Assembly: GCF_004010195.1 (NCBI RefSeq) | Contig: NC_057722.1 | Span: 20,459,911 to 20,523,910 of the forward strand | DNA from: Chiloscyllium plagiosum | Lineage: Eukaryota | Direction of reading: 5' to 3' | DNA length: 64,000 bases | Part shown: in pieces, positions 2,378-59,321 of the stretch | Position numbering within the stretch: position 1 is the first letter of the stretch | How the letters are laid out: the number at the start of each line of letters is the position of its first letter | Translations under genes and position numbers: made by a program | Notes under the pieces: model-generated | Told to the model about the DNA's origin: nothing | The model's database searches: none | Seen by the model: only the letters and a program-made list of their open reading frames with translations

Positions 2378-3482
2378 CTATAAGATAGAAGCCAATGAAC
2401 ACATAGCCCATATTCTGTCATTCAGGATTTAATTATAATATCAAAATAAACCTAATGTTTTAAATCTCATGTAAAAAAATCCTTATGTTTTATTGATTTG
2501 TTTGACAAAAAGAGTCAGTCTTTCTTTTTAAAAGAGCACAATATATTTTGAAGGGGCTGGGCAATGAAAGAGCATAAATTACCTGGGAGATAAAATCCCT
2601 CAGTCCTTCTGGTGCTCTCCCTCTCCCTCTCATTATGAAGAGTGCAGCACAAGGGTTAAAAGTCATCAGCACTACTGGCACTTTCAACACTTCCTGCATT
2701 GGTGGAGTCTCTGCTTACTCTTAAAAGGGCAGTGACCCACAAGTCCTGAAATGCCAATTCCTTAGTCTTCATATATCAAGAAACATGGCTAGTTCAGTGA
2801 GATCAGCCTCACAGAAAATTCATGCAGCTTAGAGACTGGTTTGCAAAGTGAATAATGTTGTACTAACTCTTTCCTGACAAACATCTGGCTCACATGGATT
2901 TGTAAGTATGGAAAATTCTTTATGACAATATGGTGTCCTCACTAAGGGGGTTGATGAATAAATGGATTGTCCCCCAAAAGTAAGGGCAGCCAATTGACCA
3001 TCCCAGCTCCTGCCAGATCTCGCACAATTCATTGGATTTCTTAAACTATAGGGCAAACATATGTCCAAGATGTCACCAATTGCATGGGTACTAGTCCCAG
3101 CCATTCAAATGAGGAGACCACCTGCTGACATATATGCTCTTTTCTCGAGCAAAAGTAGTCCTAGCAAAATTACAGTTCAGATATCTTTATCAACAAGACT
3201 TTTTACCCACGTTCATTCATAGTAAAAAGATAATGAGAACAGTTATTTAAATTTGTTGGTGATATGCCAAGAGAGAGAGTGAGAGGGAAAGAGACAGAGA
3301 GGTGAAATGCTGAAAAACAAACTGGCAAAAGGATGTACATGATGAGAAAGATAAAGTGAGGGAGAAGAGTTGAAGATACTTAGGAGGATGTACCATAAAA
3401 AAGCACAGAAAAATTGGGAAGACGGCAACACAAATAAGGACAACTTCAAAAATAGTTAATAGGTGTCATAGTTGAATTTTAC

Positions 3483-3571
3483 CTTCAGAATGTTATCCCC
3501 TTGGCCCACTTCAGCATTCAATTTGTTGATCAGATTGCGAAAAAATTCTTCAATATCAAGCTGTTTAAAGA
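3483..3571 (-). CDS. USP deubiquitinase A, coding exon 4 (QQD-box equivalent)
   Basis: ttcctttcaag acceptor and gtaaaa donor; 89 nt, phase 1/0; VFKQLDIEEFFRNLINKLNAEVGQGDNILK, in frame with flanking exons. Confidence 0.85.
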
Positions 3572-3765
3572 CTTGAAAGGAAGAATGCTTAGAAATTATG
3601 CTTAATTGAAAATACAAGCATATACAATATATTTAACATGTTGACCTGGATTCCTTATATGTTGGCATCAGTGAAAGCTAATAAGTATAAACTTCTGCCA
3701 AAGAAGAACTTTGCAGTTAATCCTTCAATAGTGTATGCACTGAAGTGTTAAACTAGATAATGGAT

Positions 3766-6306: not shown

Positions 6307-6403
6307 TTGTAAATGGACTGTTTAACTTCTGGAGTCAAGAACCATGTTTGAAGTAATGTGTTCAGAAAACATGTGGCTCCTTGATTGATGAGGCCCACAG
6401 AAG
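6307..6403 (-). CDS. USP deubiquitinase A, coding exon 2 (catalytic Cys box)
   Basis: catgcag acceptor and gtaggt donor; 97 nt, phase 1/2; [32 protein letters not shown] is a canonical USP Cys box (GLxNxGxTC[FY]xN). Confidence 0.93.
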
Positions 6404-6567
6404 CTGCATGAATACAGAGACAAAAGGGAAAAGTTGATTAGGAACACAAGAGTAATTTTCCTGCTTAGACGATCTTGACGATAACCTGCATTTATAAGAT
6501 GCTCCTCACATGTAGCGAGACATATCAAAGTGCTTTCTTAAATTGGATAAATATAGTAGGCACAATT

Positions 6568-29521: not shown

Positions 29522-29989
29522 CTAATGAGAACCTCTTTGTTTCCAGACTGGTATTGAATTTTGCCTTGGTGCCATCTCTTTTGCACAATAACCATACCAT
29601 GACCCTTGTCTGGTTGCCTGGCACGTAGCCGTCAGCTCAAGGCAGACAAAGCAAAATTCGACAAAACACCTACTGCATCTAATATTTTTACAACCAAATT
29701 GGTTGTGCTCAAGCAGCCTGCCACAAGTAGGACAGGCCCGAATAGAAGGGCAATTTGTCACAACAGTATCTGGGAGGTTAATTAATGGGCAGGTACGCAG
29801 TGTATCCAATTCTATGTTGGTGCATCCTTCATTGTCACATCGATCAGAACGTGGCCCAGGTCCTTTCCATGGTTTCAGGCATTGCCAGCAGAATTCAAAA
29901 ACACTCTGTTTCTCAGCAGTACAGATTACGCAGTGGACACTTAGGTTAGCCAGGTCTTTGCGTTCAACAAATGTGCTGCATCCTGGACA
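29522..29989 (-). CDS. RBR-type E3 ligase, exon 4 (IBR + RING2/Rcat, stop)
   Basis: tttaccactag acceptor, phase 0; 468 nt; CPGCSTFVERKDLANLSVHCVICT..FEFCWQCLKPW (IBR) and RACPTCGRLLEHNQFGCKNIRCSRCFVEFCFVCL (RING2)...WKQRGSH*. Confidence 0.93.
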   Translation of the reverse strand, partial: CPGCSTFVERKDLANLSVHCVICTAEKQSVFEFCWQCLKPWKGPGPRSDRCDNEGCTNIELDTLRTCPLINLPDTVVTNCPSIRACPTCGRLLEHNQFGCKNIRCSRCFVEFCFVCLELTATCQATRQGSWYGYCAKEMAPRQNSIPVWKQRGSH

Positions 29990-30189
29990 CTAGTGGTAAA
30001 AATAAGGCCAAATATTTAGTGACATGAATATATACACATTGATAACTCAGATTGCAACCATGAAAGGTGCAAACCCCCAGAAGTTGCTGATGCTTCTGTT
30101 ATCAATGATGATGTGTTAACAGTTTCACCATCACTCCTATGATAAAATCAAGACCCTAAATCCACTCCTCACAACACCCCAGGATTGCT

Positions 30190-31230
30190 ACACTCCTACA
30201 ATGAACAAAAGGAAGTAAAAGAAATAAATTAGAGTATGAAAGGAAGCTAGCTAGGAATGTAAAACCAGATAGCAAGTGCTTCATATAGGAATCTGAAAGG
30301 TAAAATAATAAGTAAAGGGAGTAATGGACCTCCAGAGCATGAAAATGGGGAGTTAAGAGTAGATAAGCCTGTACTGCGCTGTATTCTTCTATGTTCTATG
30401 TTCTATGTTCTAAAATAATAAGTAAAGGGAGTAATGGACCTCCAGAGCATGAAAATGGGGAGTTAAGAGTAGATAATAAAGTAATGGTGGATGAAATAAC
30501 ATCTTCACCACAGAGCATATTTTTAAAATTGCCAATAATAGCTATAAACCAGGAATGGAAGGGAGAGAGGAACATAATGAGATCACAATCATGTGGAAAT
30601 CTGTATTAAACAAACTGCTGGACCTAGAGGCTGACAAGTCTCTGGGTCCAGATGAACTTCATTCCAGAGACTTGAAAGAGGTGGCAATTAAGGAAGTAAA
30701 TGCATTTGTCGAAATTTTCCAAACTTCCTTTGAATCAAGAAAGATTCCACTGGACTATACAAGAAAGCCAAAATAACTAATCTATTTATGAAGGAAAGTG
30801 TGCATATAATAGGAAACTGCAGGCAAGTTCACTTGATGTCTGGTGTGAGAAAGCTTTAAGAATCAATTATTGAAGTGATTACTGCTGCACACTTAGAAAA
30901 ATTCAAGGTAATTGGTAAGGGTCAACATGGTTGTGTTGAAAGGAAATCATTTTTAACCAATTTATTGGAGTATTTTGAAAGAGTAACTTGTACTAAGGAT
31001 AAAGGGGAGCCAGCAGACATACTCTACTCAGATTTCCAGACGCATTTGACAAGTTGCTGCATCAAAGGTTATTGTACAAAGTGGAAGTTCACAGAGTAAG
31101 GGGTAATAATCAAGCATAGATGGAAGATTTGCCAGCTGACAAAAAACAGGGAATATGTGTAAATTGATGGTGTGCTATTGAAATCTGTATTGGGGCTCAA
31201 ACTTTGGACAGTTTACTTCAATGACGCAAA
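30190..31230 (+). mobile_element. Degenerate CR1 ORF2 fragment in RBR intron 3
   Basis: DKSLGPDELHSRDLKEVA, GQHGC..KSFLTNLLEYFERVT motifs. Confidence 0.8.
30301..30476 (+). repeat. 66-bp perfect direct duplication flanking a 44-bp CR1 3' tail
   Basis: 30301-30366 is identical to 30411-30476; insert GCCTGTACTGCGCTGTATTC(TTCTATG)n. Confidence 0.85.
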
Positions 31231-31302
31231 TCTTCAACATTTAATTACATCTATATGTGACGTGACAGTTAACTTGCATTGTTATTTCTGTAGTAAACTT
31301 AC

Positions 31303-31476
31303 TGATTGGTATTCACAGTACTCAGCTGCAGCCAACACAGCAACAGTTTCCTCAAAATATTGCTGCTCTTCTGCGGTCAGAACCGCCAGTTTGCGAACTT
31401 CATCATAGGGCCATTCATGTCCACATTTCTCTGTCGTTCCCTCCTTTAGTGCTGGGCAGAAGAACTTATACTGACC
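31303..31476 (-). CDS. RBR-type E3 ligase, exon 3 (end of RING1 and linker)
   Basis: catag acceptor and gtaagt donor; 174 nt, phase 0/0; GQYKFFCPALKEGTTEKCGHEWPYDEVRKLAVLTAEEQQYFEETVAVLAAAEYCEYQS. Confidence 0.92.
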
Positions 31477-32083
31477 CTATGGTTCCAAAGTTAAATGCAA
31501 ATGAAGGCTTCAGACTTCAATTCAGTGAGCATCATGTGTGTGGCAGAGTAGTATATCATTCAGTTACAATTCGCTAACCGAGTTCCCAACTCACTCAGGT
31601 AGATTCAATGTGGTAAAAGTGATAAATAAGTTTCAGATTTTTATTTTAAATTGTTGAAGATAGAACTAAATATTATAATACTAATAAAATGCCAAATTTG
31701 AAATAAATAGATGACAAGAAGCAAAGTAACATCATACAGTACAATGTGCAGTGATTTATTTTGATGTACAATAAGTAGTGGTATGTTCACAAGGCCCACA
31801 TATTCAGAATATCATTTTTAACAAGTGTTATGTACTCCAGACTACCTGAAACTTCTCCTCAGGGAGATTGTGGTCTAGCAAAGTTTGACACATTCACTGC
31901 AGCACATTTTATTGCACGAGAAACTAGGGACAAGAATGATTCAATTATATTGATAAAATTCAAATTCAGAAAAAAAACATATAAAGCATCACTGCAGGTG
32001 GAATAAAGCATTGTTGTATTTTTACACATTTATATAGTTTCTTTAAATTTGACAGACTCAATTTAAAAGCCAAAAATGCTTAC

Positions 32084-32181
32084 CTGATCGAGGAGACTTC
32101 GACACCAACTAGTCAGTGAATTTGGATCAACTGCATGTTTGCAGGACATTTCTGCTCGCAAAATATTAGGATCATCATCTC
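32084..32181 (-). CDS. RBR-type E3 ligase, exon 2 (degenerate RING1)
   Basis: tttcag acceptor and gtaagc donor; 98 nt, phase 1/0; GDDDPNILRAEMSCKHAVDPNSLTSWCRSLLDQ. Confidence 0.92.
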
Positions 32182-32321
32182 CTGAAATGGCAGGGAACAC
32201 AGTCACTTTTGAAAGAATGCTATTTGGGAATCAGCAAATGTGAATTACCAATAACAGAAGGGCCAGTTTAAACATTGACCTTGGACTAATATCTGATGAA
32301 CATCTTAACATGATGATGGAT

Positions 32322-33187
32322 TTTTGCAAGGTTTGTGAAGGTTTGTCGCTCAGGTTGAGGTTTAGGGAGTAGGTTTGCTCACTGAGCTGTAGGTTTGATA
32401 TCCAGACATTTCATTACCTGGCTAGGTAACATCATCAGTGGCGACCTCCAAGTGAAGCGAAGCTGTTGTCTCCTGCTTTCTATTTATATCTTTCTCTTGG
32501 ATGGGGTTCCTGGGGTTTGTGGTGATGTCATTTCCTGTTCGTTTTCTGAGGGGTTGATAGATGTGTGTTTGTTTATGGCGTTGTGGTTGGAGTGCCAGGC
32601 CTCTAAGAATTGTCTGCATATCTTTGCATAGCCTGTCCCAGGATAAATGTGTTGTCCCAGTCGAAATGGTGTTTTTTTTCAATCCGTGTGTAGGGCTATG
32701 AGGGAGAGAGGGTTGTGTCTTTTTGTGGCTAGCTGGTGTTCATGTATCCTGGTGGCTAACTTTCTTCCTGTTTGTCCTACGTAGTGTTTGTGACAGTCCT
32801 TGCATGGAATTTTGTAGATGACGCTGGTTTTGTCCATGGGTTGTACTGGGTCTTTTAAGTTTGTTAGTTTTTGTTTGAGAGTGTTGGTGGGTTTGTGTGC
32901 TACTAGATTTCTGAGGGGTCTTAGTAGTCTGGCTGTTATTTCTGAAATGACAGCCAGACTACTAAGACCCCTCGGAATCCTAGTAGCACACAAACCCACC
33001 AACACTCTCAAACAAAAACTAACAAACTTAAAAGACCCAGTACAACCCATGGACAAATCCAATGTCATCTACAAAATTCCATGCAAGGACTGTCACAAAC
33101 ACTACGTAGGACAAACAGGAAGAATAGCCAGGTAATGAAACGTCTGGATATCAAACCTACAGCTCAGCGAACAAACCTACACCCTAA
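32322..33187. mobile_element. Penelope-like element (GIY-YIG endonuclease 3' end plus pLTR) with an internal inverted duplication
   Basis: VIYKIPCKDCHKHYVGQTGR..TRIHEH GIY-YIG motif on both strands; 12-bp flanking direct repeat ATGATGATGGAT (32310-32321, 33188-33199). Confidence 0.88.
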
Positions 33188-33635
33188 ATGATGATGGATA
33201 TATGCAACAAAACACAACATGGAATGGTCTGCTGAATTTTATTTGTGTTAATGTTCATCTCTATTTTAAAATTGTATGTAATATTTTAAAATGCCCATCC
33301 ATATTCTCAAAGAAAATACACAATTGAAAACATGTCTTTTTCCAATTTTCCTGATTTAATTTTTAAAATATACAAACTACCCAGGCAAACCTTCAAGTGA
33401 GAGGTGAGTGTTGCCAAACTTCCAGGATTGTCCGACAAAGAATCAAAGATTAATCCCCTGGACATTGCTGTGAATATCTCAGTAAATTAAAAGGACTTTG
33501 AAATAAATGCTTGTCTCCTCACATCTTTGAACAATTTTGCTTATTGGTTTTAATAATATTAAAGATCTGGAATATATTATTTGAGTGACTGAATCAAGGT
33601 TGCATGGTGATATAAAATACAGACCATTAATCATT

Positions 33636-33810
33636 AATTGGGAGATGCCGGTGTTGGACTGGGGTGTACAAAGTTAAAAATCACACAACACTAGGTTATA
33701 GTCCAACAGGTTTAATTGGAAGCACACTAGCTTTCGGAGCGGCGCTCCGAAAGCTAGTGTGCTTCCAATTAAACCTGTTGGACTCTAACCTGGTGTTGTG
33801 TGATTTTTAA
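33636..33810. mobile_element. Palindromic non-autonomous element (same family as 16179-16350)
   Basis: About 68-bp arms with a 3-nt loop centred at 33742; flanking direct repeat CATTAATCATT (33625-33635, 33811-33821). Confidence 0.8.
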
Positions 33811-34338
33811 CATTAATCATTCAAGTTAAATTACTTTAAAAATCTTTGGGCTTTAGTTTGAGAGGAAGTCATTTAAATTGAGCTGGCATAATTTAAAATG
33901 GCCACTGAAATTACTGGAACCTGAAAATTGCTGAGCTCAACAGGAATTTATAAAGAAGTGACGAAATAACAAGGCAAAGCAACTATTGCTATATGTAAAT
34001 TTCTGAAACGGAACACCACTTTGAAACTGAAAATGTGATCCAACGGGAATTATCCAGTCACTAATATTCATTAACTGGAATATAGATCTCACACAGGCCT
34101 TCACATTTTCTATGAGGAAGTGACATTTGCACTACAGTTATAGCTGGAACAAAGATCATCCTCCAAATTTCATGGTTTCGTTTTTAAGTCACCTTGCGCT
34201 GGCATGTTATAACAGACCTCTGGAGGAGGTGGGATTTAAGCCCGGCTGTCCTGGCACAGAGATAGGGACATTACTACTGCACGTCAAGAGCCCCCAAATA
34301 AGGTAGATTGAAACCTTCCCCACCTCACCATCCATATA

Positions 34339-34551
34339 CAGGGCGACCCCGGGTATCTGCAGAATCATTTTCCGTACTTTCAGTTACCCGCAGATTACTG
34401 CGGCCCAAACATATTATAGGGAGCCAGGGGTCCGGAGGTTGCCTGGAAGGTACATTTCCCATTGAAGTGAATGGGTTCGCTCCCATCCGCGGTTTCCGGC
34501 TTCCGTGGTAGATCCTGGAACGCATCCCCCACGGGTATGTGGGGGCTACTG
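34339..34551. mobile_element. Tc1/mariner (Tigger-like) MITE
   Basis: Starts TA|CAG; imperfect TIRs; right end reads CAGTAGCCCCCACATACCCGTGGGGATGCGTTCCAGGA on minus, resembling Tigger/MER2 termini. Confidence 0.55.
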
Positions 34552-35172
34552 GACGTAAAAGGATATCTGGGGAGCTCTGACAATGATCACCAAAATTTGA
34601 CTGGATGGCTAATTTGTGATTGAAAGTGATGGCAACAGCATGGATTCAATTCCTTCATCAGCTGAAGTCGCTATGAAGGACTTGCCTTCTCAACTGTTCC
34701 CTCAGCTAAGGCATGGTGACGGTAGGGTAAAATCACGACTGGATTGTTATTCTTTAATTAGAGATTGGGACAATGTCGACTTTACTTTCACTTCTCAATA
34801 TCTGGGAATGTGAACATGAATACACCATAATTCTACTGGCAAAGTAAATAAGCTTCAACCTTGATCATTTATATACAAGACAAAACATCGAAATGTTTAG
34901 TGCATATTTCAGAAGTATATTTAAGTGTATCAGTAACATCATTTTATTTGCACTTAAATCAGCTCTTAACCAGTTGAAGTCACACCGCCTTGATCTGAAA
35001 GGACGTGGTCATCTCGAAGAAAAATCAAAAGATGTTTAAAGACCTTTGAAAAAAATAATTTATCATGTTAATCGATGATCACGAATTTGCGAATAAAAAT
35101 TCTAAAACTAAATTCTTGTTGCTGGTTCAAAACTTGACATGCAGATAACAGAAAGCATATATTTTAATTTAC

Positions 35173-35260
35173 CTGTGATCTCATCCTTCCTTTTCACAAA
35201 TTTCAGCGTACGGTCGTCTGGATCGTAACGCTTTTCTATTTGTTGTCGTAGCGTTGTCAT
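35173..35260 (-). CDS. RBR-type E3 ligase, first coding exon
   Basis: ATG at 35260; MTTLRQQIEKRYDPDDRTLKFVKRKDEIT; gtaaat donor, phase 1. Exons of 88+98+174+468 nt give an uninterrupted 275-aa ORF. Confidence 0.88.
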
Positions 35261-43766: not shown

Positions 43767-43888
43767 CTAGTCCCCTCCACCAGGCAGACGTAACACCAAG
43801 AGGATTGTTGATTTGTCCGTGATGCTGTATTCAGAGAATTTTTTGTTATCTTCCAATTGTTTGTTGGCAAAAAGAAGGCGCAGATCAC
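43767..43888 (-). CDS. Ubiquitin-like modifier, exon 2 (C-terminal half, LRLPGG-GD-stop)
   Basis: ccatcgcag acceptor, phase 1; [40 protein letters not shown], aligning to ubiquitin [36 protein letters not shown]. Confidence 0.93.
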
Positions 43889-44210
43889 CTGCGATGGCTA
43901 ATCCACCAAAAGAAACAGAAACGGAGAAAAATGAATAAACCTAAAAAAAAACCTCAAGAACATCCTAAATACTATGGTTAGTTATTATTCCAATTTTAAC
44001 CTTAAAAGGATTTAGACCCCGCATCCCTTCGGTAAGTTAAATTCTAAAGTTTGGGTTAAGCGCTTTAAAACCCAAAGATTTGAATCGGTATCATGTAGTT
44101 TAATTCTCATTTTGTACCACCAGGTGATATGATTGTCCACTCAATTCTTTAGCTGATTACTGCTATCACTTTCAAAAGCCCACTCTCGTGCTCTGTTATT
44201 GCTCACGTAC

Positions 44211-44355
44211 CTGCTTCTCCCGGCACTTTCTTCAATAACAATTCCTTAAACTTGAGAATGGGCATCGCATTAAATTCTGCCTCAGTGTGTGAAACATCAA
44301 CAGTCATTTTTTCCCCTTTCAACCCTACGACAAACACTTGAAAGATTTTCCCCAT
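44211..44355 (-). CDS. Ubiquitin-like modifier, exon 1 (N-terminal beta-grasp half)
   Basis: ATG at 44355; MGKIFQVFVVGLKGEKMTVDVSHTEAEFNAMPILKFKELLLKKVPGEA; CAG|gtacgt donor, phase 1. Spliced product is 88 aa; from memory it resembles teleost zgc:194655-like Ubls (not searched). Confidence 0.92.
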
Positions 44356-44438: not shown

Positions 44439-44450
44439 AGTTTCACTTTT
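44439..44450 (+). promoter_or_regulatory. ISRE upstream of the Ubl gene
   Basis: AGTTTCACTTTT, 84 nt upstream of the ATG; GAS-like TTCCTGAAA at 44507-44515. Confidence 0.65.
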
Positions 44451-47832: not shown

Positions 47833-47846
47833 AGTTTCGCTTTCTC
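47833..47846 (+). promoter_or_regulatory. Perfect ISRE upstream of USP-B
   Basis: AGTTTCGCTTTCTC matches AGTTTCNNTTTCNC, about 170 nt upstream of ATG 48013, in a CpG-rich region. Confidence 0.75.
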
Positions 47847-58578: not shown

Positions 58579-58748
58579 CATCAAGACAGGGGAGGGGGAG
58601 AGGGTCACAAAATTTGAGTTAGTTGGATGTGATATTATGAGACTTTGTTTTTATCTTTATTGCTTGACTTGCTGAGTGGAGGAAATAACTTGGGGGTGGG
58701 GGTGGGTTCATCACAAAGAAGTGGGTAATGTATTATTTCTTTTCATAG

Positions 58749-58845
58749 CATTTGTGGCACTCATCAATATAAGGAATAACTGCTGTGTAAATGCCCTTCT
58801 GCAGACCTTGTTTATAATTCCAGAATATAGAGACCTACTTTTGAA
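58749..58845 (+). CDS. USP18-like deubiquitinase B, catalytic Cys-box exon; gene continues beyond the right edge
   Basis: ttatttcttttcatag acceptor and gtaagt donor; 97 nt, phase 1/2 (same as USP-A); AFVALINIRNNCCVNALLQTLFIIPEYRDLLL; the CC motif recalls USP18 (GLHNIGQTCCLNSL). Confidence 0.88.
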
Positions 58846-59321
58846 GTAAGTTCTGGTTTTGCTGATTTACTTGCATTTTTTCTGTTTTATAACTAATTAA
58901 GACTACTGTTATATCACACAATTTATCTTCTAGCAGATTTTGCAAAATTTAGTATATTTGAGAAACACCTTTTGTTATATTTTACATGTGCACAAGCAAT
59001 ACTACCCTAACCTAATTGAAGGCTCTTTTTTGATAACTGTATAACTCATTGAAAAGGTAACCAGACTGAATTTTGGCTTAATGAGGAAATTATGCTTCAG
59101 TTATATTGAACGTTTAGTCAGAACACATCTGGATATTGGATTCAGTTTAGAGTAATGAAACACAACAATAATAATTTAGGTTTACCTAGTATCTTTAACA
59201 TAATGAAAGGTAAAAGCATTATATTAAAAAGTAACAGCAGAGAACATAAGGAGATTTTAGTTTAGATGACCAAAATGTTTAATTCAAGAGAATGGTGCTT
59301 CAAGATGTTTTGCATAGACTT

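Follow-up and report, generated by a model that had tools for sequence, protein, structure and literature searches.

Which modifier does a compact RING1-IBR-RING2 (RBR) protein transfer, and with which conjugating enzyme (E2), when its gene lies beside a gene for a ubiquitin-like (Ubl) protein? This question is raised by a 64,000-nucleotide window of the genome of the shark Chiloscyllium plagiosum (NCBI RefSeq assembly GCF_004010195.1, contig NC_057722.1, positions 20,459,911 to 20,523,910), in which a putative ubiquitin ligase (E3) of 275 residues is encoded on the minus strand between positions 29522 and 35260; all positions below are those of the window unless a locus is named. A first-pass annotation, made from the DNA alone, had described a minimal RBR with half a RING1 and a Cys-x-Asn active-site loop, and had taken the former as a sign of a non-standard E2 or Ubl partner. 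Our analysis shows that the gene is an ordinary member of ARIT, a widespread named clade of RBR-only proteins, and leads us to favour, at slightly less than an even chance, the reading that ARIT is an interferon-induced E3 for the adjacent Gly-Gly Ubl, acting through a one-zinc RING1. A small dedicated Ubl pathway would be the simplest account, because the Gly-Gly of the Ubl is kept, Ubl and RBR are fused in some relatives, proteases cluster with the pair, and members of the set are induced together.

The ligase gene was resolved into four minus-strand exons, with GT-AG introns throughout and a single terminal stop:

35173..35260, minus strand: ARIT coding exon 1 (residues 1-30), with RING1 loop L1, in which D26, I28 and T29 (codons 35185-35174) lie at ligand positions 1 and 2
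32084..32181, minus strand: ARIT exon 2 (residues 30-62), with C43 and H45 as ligands of zinc site II, D48 and S51 in place of site I ligands, and E2-facing W55
31303..31476, minus strand: ARIT exon 3 (residues 63-120), with C69-P70 and C80 (ligands 7 and 8, separated by a long loop) and the RING1-IBR helices
29522..29989, minus strand: ARIT exon 4 (residues 121-275 and stop), with the all-Cys IBR, linker residues C187 and C200, and RING2
29707-29705 and 29692-29690, minus strand: exon 4 codons of the RING2 residues H215 and C220 (the predicted catalytic Cys), respectively; N222 lies two residues beyond the latter

The structure proposed earlier proved to be real, since spliced joints (read as CT..AC) for all three introns were seen in public contigs (three of four runs, from two studies, the fourth giving no reads on the gene; the RNA status of the runs is guessed or unrecorded). 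RefSeq XP_043557929.1 contains the same 275 residues behind a 32-residue in-frame extension, a second annotated isoform uses an alternative first exon, and the start methionine is shared by four orthologous shark models. In addition, one contig begins right after an AG, 7 bases before the start codon, and a further 5' exon may therefore exist. Pfam recognised the IBR in exon 4. The AlphaFold2 model of an orthologue (265/275, 96% identical) has a mean predicted local distance difference test score of 91, and a Foldseek search with it gave 40 matches at E ≤ 0.001, each listed row being an RBR. The best structural matches were HOIL-1 (Z 8.4 and 7.7) and ARIH2 (Z 7.5); sequence similarity to solved RBRs is marginal (best E 8e-04). 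Pfam, Foldseek and superposition together place RING1, IBR and RING2 in this order and with this fold. The model and the fold matches extend from RING1 to RING2, with 20 residues after the last Cys, confirming that the shark protein is an RBR module with no added domain, although distant relatives carry a fused Ubl.

The name ARIT was given to the RBR-only clade by Grimholt et al. 2025 (PMC12234341), who list proteins from teleosts, reptiles and monkeys, with none in humans, and report loss of the gene on the way to apes and humans. In salmon cells ARIT rises with interferon-gamma (log2 above 11) and with virus, and it stands among the most strongly interferon-gamma-induced genes of their salmon table; the parts of the paper covered here hold no functional assay (PMC12234341). 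This family name had been overlooked in the first-pass annotation, as had the near-invariant His215 discussed below. Alligator ARIT (P0045) is 55% identical to the shark protein over 258 residues (E 1e-101) and fits the alligator row of the published alignment by eye. A search with exon 4 gave 250 relatives among 304 candidates of 273 residues or more, and counts for close homologues refer to the 120 listed, which come from sharks, rays, a chimaera, bichir, lungfish, teleosts, amphibians, alligator and colugos. Further relatives are 146 representatives, the best 150 of 1,211 matches minus four already in the set.

In a quick tree of 54 rows, built with no other RBRs as outgroup, the shark gene grouped with cartilaginous-fish sequences (support 95) and with teleosts (93) inside a 40-row vertebrate clade (Shimodaira-Hasegawa-like approximate likelihood ratio test, 95), and the tetrapod ARITs joined a second shark and ray paralogue (97). 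A tandem ARIT paralogue lies 71-80 kb downstream of the ligase gene (L009:9217-9654 and L010:5264-8333, minus strand). It was not among the rows of the tree; its active-site loop and its CaaX-like end match those of the second shark and ray group. This terminus, encoded by the last exon, recurs in 12 of the 120 close homologues. All but one of the 12 belong to the group in which Tyr follows the Cys-Lys of the loop, a distribution that suggests lipid anchoring of that branch.

Several more remote family members were also seen. Four more distant paralogues were found in the genome (L003-L006, L057-L060 and L065, on contigs C43, C99069 and C17); each of the four retains the upstream His, RING1-region exons were matched in the three that were checked, and two of these show the motif lacking site I, while L006 has an in-frame stop and no catalytic Cys. 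Two other relatives, P0306 and P0197, carry fusion partners: a macrodomain, or a kinase together with a Ubl-like segment. The sole record labelled as a lamprey ARIT (P0095, Lampetra planeri) nests among teleosts; it is probably contamination or a mislabel and was not counted.

The first feature to be explained is RING1, which retains a single zinc site. The ligands of site II are C43, H45, C69 and C80, so ligands 3, 4, 7 and 8 are kept as the first-pass annotation had read, and the site I positions hold D26, T29, D48 and S51, the latter two at positions 5 and 6. The loss of site I that it had noted is real and extends well beyond this gene: no Cys or His was found at these positions in any of 117 close homologues, all four site II ligands being kept in 115 of 119, and this family-wide pattern rules out a species-specific decay of RING1. 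Among the 85 further relatives that cover RING1, 72 have no Cys or His in site I, 13 have one and none has two. In nine of those 13, the single ligand is a Cys at position 26, with Ile or Val two residues on; therefore D26 corresponds to ligand 1, I28 to the hydrophobic E2 contact and T29 to ligand 2. Ligands 1 and 2 had been reported as lacking; zinc ligands are indeed absent, but the positions themselves are present in exon 1 around the conserved Ile28. Repair of RING1 by a missing exon was rejected on the same grounds, together with the lack of CxxC in both alternative N-termini; an upstream exon restoring a CxxC pair was looked for in the annotated N-termini and in exon 1, and none was found there. 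Within 26 residues before the SCxH motif, CxxC occurs in one of 115 homologues (P0008), whose extra stretch looks like a read-through intron. With none of the four site I ligands, RING1 is no two-zinc cross-brace, and the protein was filed as RBR-type rather than as a canonical RBR.

The loss of a zinc site does not make this domain half a RING. Because the part of the model between residue 23 and about residue 92 can be superposed on RING domains (RNF146 with a root-mean-square deviation (rmsd) of 1.8 over 52 residues), the RING1 fold is predicted to be whole, with the conserved polar residues D26, T29, D48 and S51 standing in for zinc I. HOIP RING1 also superposed on the model (Z 6.6, rmsd 3.5 over 84). 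Positions 28, 55 and 70 are those that usually face the E2, and this set (hydrophobic, aromatic and Pro, respectively) is jointly kept in 93 of 118 homologues. It has to be weighed whether the altered RING1 recruits a special E2, or whether the protein serves as a scaffold with no catalytic role. Of the two zinc sites, site I is the one proximal to the E2, and SP-RINGs, which serve a Ubl, lose it as well (PMC10873205); the C69-C80 loop is also long; U-boxes, however, replace zinc with hydrogen bonds and still serve E2s (PMC10873205), I28, W55, P70 and C220 are conserved, and no E2 gene was found on the contig, this count being a lower bound. We consider this explanation improbable. Nothing in RING1 points positively to a special E2, even if the zinc site next to the E2 is the one lost, and the non-standard E2 once read from it is not borne out.

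The second feature is the active site. The IBR and RING2 had been called intact, and each does have eight candidate ligands; all are Cys, with the customary His ligand absent from both, so that the two domains are complete but non-canonical. The RING2 loop reads GCKNIRC with C220 between two predicted strands, as in canonical RBRs, and in close homologues C220 is found in 119 of 120, K221 in 120 of 120 and H215 in 119 of 120. The Cys-x-Asn reading was thus correct as to the residues, whereas the proposal that Asn marks a special active site was rejected, since position +2 (residue 222) varies across the family: among 120 close homologues, 103 have Asn there and 14 have Tyr, and 32 of 127 further relatives have His. 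The +2 His is also absent from human RNF144A and RNF144B, which have Gln there, and from HOIL-1, which has Trp and obtains its catalytic His from elsewhere (bioRxiv 2022.10.11.511834); in NEDD4 a His precedes the Cys (PMC3940038).

H215 lies five residues ahead of C220, and both fall in the turn of one predicted hairpin (strands 212-214 and 222-224). H215 may be a relocated catalytic base, for which HOIL-1 offers a precedent. Furthermore, 115 of 127 further relatives have both H215 and C220, which are retained in 36 of the 44 that lack C187 or C200. This persistence argues that the pair are not simply linker-zinc ligands, and an arrangement in which H215 and C220 bind zinc with C187 and C200 was disfavoured on this basis. 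Both histidines, H215 and the one at +2, are present in 29 further relatives; H215 may therefore have another role too. The linker cysteines C187 (120/120) and C200 (116/120) are themselves conserved; a cluster of six Cys could arise if they combined with the four distal cysteines of RING2.

A Ubl partner in a dedicated pathway is made plausible not by these two motifs but by the surroundings of the gene and the domain fusions of its relatives. On the same strand as the ligase gene, 8.5 kb upstream of it, is a Ubl gene with two exons, and parts of genes of the ubiquitin-specific protease (USP) type lie on both sides of the pair:

44211..44355, minus strand: Ubl coding exon 1, in the orthologue group of the gene called zgc:194655 in RefSeq
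43767..43897 (second possible acceptor 43888), minus strand: Ubl coding exon 2, ending in RLPGG, a two-residue tail and a stop; Pfam ubiquitin, E 8.5e-08
44440..44450, minus strand: weak site resembling an interferon regulatory factor (IRF) element, 85 bp upstream of the Ubl start
47834..47844, minus strand: weak element resembling an interferon-stimulated response element (ISRE), 3.5 kb upstream of the Ubl start
6312..6407, minus strand: USP-type protease A, Cys-box exon, between the two ARIT genes; later exons continue past the window (L014, and L013 with the His box)
3477..3578, minus strand: USP-type protease A, exon with the Gln-Asp box; similar to the corresponding protease B exon (tblastn E 1.7e-06)
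58748..58846, plus strand: USP-type Cys-box segment (protease C); Pfam UCH E 7.5e-04, below the curated cut-off; rest of the gene not found

The predicted Ubl has the ubiquitin fold by Pfam, with Gly-Gly just before its C-terminus. It shares 41% sequence identity with ubiquitin, compared with 36% for the C-terminal domain of an ISG15-like protein of the same genome. RLPGG was present in all 17 aligned stand-alone Ubls, and the short tail beyond it varies. ISRE-like matches number six in the window against 2.4 expected, three of 100 shuffles reaching six, and IRF-element-like matches two against 0.53, 11 of 100 shuffles reaching two. Protease A has Cys, Gln-Asp, LKRF and His boxes, and three boxes were found for protease B, upstream. 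The ARIT paralogue, protease A, ARIT, the Ubl, protease C and protease B are linked within about 150 kb, with an additional USP-type His-box exon past the ARIT paralogue.

The linkage recurs in other species. Accession numbers of ARIT and the Ubl, used as a proxy for adjacency, are at most three apart in four of five shark and ray pairs, the fifth pair sharing only a chromosome, and by the same proxy the LOC numbers of the two genes are consecutive in Mustelus. On salmon chromosome 7, some 157 kb separate ARIT.1 from a USP18-like gene, and interferon-gamma raises expression of the USP18-like gene by log2 4.9 and that of ARIT.1 by log2 13.5 (PMC12234341, Table 3 and supplement). Moreover, gene models join the Ubl to ARIT in four teleosts and a USP to ARIT in the elephant shrew.

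Another reading is that interferon induces ARIT to act as E3 for ISG15 or for ubiquitin, and that the Ubl and USP-type genes are its neighbours only through co-regulation. Grimholt et al. mention ISG15 as a possible ARIT modifier, UBA7 is the sole activating enzyme (E1) induced in their study (PMC12234341), and the linked proteases form a sister clade of USP18. The ISG15-like genes, however, sit on a different contig from ARIT and the Ubl, and co-regulation does not explain in-frame Ubl-RBR fusions in a coral, molluscs, a brachiopod and a chytrid, so we judge this reading rather unlikely.

These fusions were found among the further relatives, 25 of which (of 146) carry an N-terminal Ubl. Gly-Gly stands at the junction between Ubl and RBR in 21 of the 25, in 12 of these 21 within R-L/M-P-G-G, and teleost gene models make up three of the four fusions that lack it. 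Twenty representatives were traced to their source, and the fusions named among them come from Acropora (coral), Ruditapes and Mercenaria (clams), Lingula (brachiopod) and Rhizophlyctis (chytrid). The Acropora fusion also occurs on many contigs of 1-2 kb and is therefore not merely a join made by a gene model.

Fusion fits a regulatory domain and a modifier precursor equally well, and ARIT could be a ubiquitin E3 that works with a standard E2 and binds the linked Ubl non-covalently as an activator or regulator. The E2-facing residues are kept, RING1 mediated UbcH7 binding in each of the four human RBRs examined in one study (PMC5758712), and ubiquitin chains allosterically activate HOIL-1 (bioRxiv 2022.10.11.511834). 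A purely regulatory domain, on the other hand, needs no Gly-Gly, yet this is preserved in the fusions and the stand-alone proteins alike, and proteases are linked to the Ubl-ARIT pair. We regard regulation by the Ubl as unlikely, though it is the strongest of the competing explanations.

The reading of ARIT as an E3 for the Ubl has evidence to contend with as well. RBRs have an allosteric ubiquitin site (bioRxiv 2022.10.11.511834), so the linked Ubl could be an activator rather than cargo. Most fused Ubls are at least as identical to ubiquitin as to the shark Ubl, and only four of 15 outscore ubiquitin on a shark-Ubl profile; their orthology with the stand-alone Ubl, for which the sequence evidence is weak, therefore rests on an insert shared by four of them and on the C-terminal motif. 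The 10-20 kb surrounding each of three distant ARIT paralogues yielded no Ubl, and no E1 or E2 gene on the ligase contig was found among 17 ThiF and 52 UQ_con Pfam matches (lower bounds). The location of H215 relative to C220 comes from predicted secondary structure. All of these points weigh against the proposed pathway.

If ARIT does ligate the Ubl, the pathway might run as follows. Interferon would induce the cluster, as in salmon. A neighbouring USP18-like protease would trim the Ubl tail, or cut the fusion in non-vertebrates, exposing Gly-Gly, and would later take the tag off again. The Ubl would be charged by an E1 and by an E2 that reacts with cysteine, both encoded elsewhere; the E2 would dock on the RING1 face formed by I28, W55 and P70, and the Ubl would be handed to C220 and then to substrates, with H215 acting as base instead of the customary +2 His. 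It is possible, though somewhat more doubtful than the ligase assignment itself, that the Ubl, ARIT and the USP18-like protease make up an undescribed interferon-induced conjugation pathway parallel to that of ISG15, descended from a Ubl-Gly-Gly-RBR precursor of the kind seen in a chytrid, corals and molluscs. In jawed vertebrates this precursor would have broken up into a cluster of separate genes, and the RBR of the pathway would have a RING1 of SP-RING type and a catalytic His that has moved.

New conjugated ubiquitin-like modifiers are rare in vertebrates, and the candidate described here has modifier, E3 and protease in one cluster. What ARIT transfers is of interest both for immunity in fish and for the question of what has been dropped from the human system. 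Even if ARIT is a ubiquitin ligase, an RBR family without RING1 zinc site I and the +2 His probes what the RBR mechanism needs.

Other features of the genome were noted in passing. Contig C25 (loci L031-L051) carries a cluster of ISG15-like genes with two domains each; there are at least four, and they fall into two types. About 115 kb upstream of the Ubl is an intronless frame resembling a seven-transmembrane receptor (L024:4609-5574, plus strand). Intron 1 of the ligase gene contains an inverted pair of fragments (32379-33135) that we take to be retroelement endonuclease-like; intron 3 presumably holds remains of a long interspersed nuclear element (LINE), and L017, L020 and L021 hold what we assume to be remains of long terminal repeat elements.

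Compared with known systems, the shark protein has the RBR-only layout of published ARIT, with no apparent transmembrane tail, and the published alignment likewise shows a RING1 without site I and the upstream His (PMC12234341). In the parts of that paper covered, the domains are termed typical, no remark is made on RING1, the active-site loop, the Ubl or the USP18-like linkage, and the word shark is absent from the main text. We found no published description of the one-zinc RING1, the upstream His or the Ubl-ARIT-USP linkage in the open-access literature, most subscription journals lying outside this scope. Domain order and fold are shared with the canonical RBRs (HOIL-1, ARIH1 and ARIH2, parkin, HOIP, RNF216 and RNF144), from which shark ARIT differs in its one-zinc RING1, its all-Cys IBR and RING2, and a His at -5/-4 rather than +2. 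SP-RINGs (Siz/PIAS and Nse2) keep the distal zinc site and lose the proximal one (PMC10873205), as the ARIT RING1 does, and their proteins also ligate a Ubl, but the ARIT domain is the RING1 of an RBR of the thioester type. Nse2 matches it weakly in structure, at Z 3.3 with an rmsd of 2.9 over 62 residues, level with many ordinary RINGs. The UBR4 hemiRING likewise binds one zinc and uses hydrogen bonds in place of the other, but it keeps the proximal site, the opposite half from ARIT (PMC10873205), and for this reason hemiRING would be the wrong label here. The closest parallel to the proposed set is ISG15 with USP18, in which an interferon-induced Gly-Gly Ubl precursor has a matching USP and its own E3s (PMC12234341). 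The shark Ubl differs from ISG15 in having a single domain with an RLPGG end, and in belonging to genes that are clustered, and in non-vertebrates fused, with those of the putative ligase.

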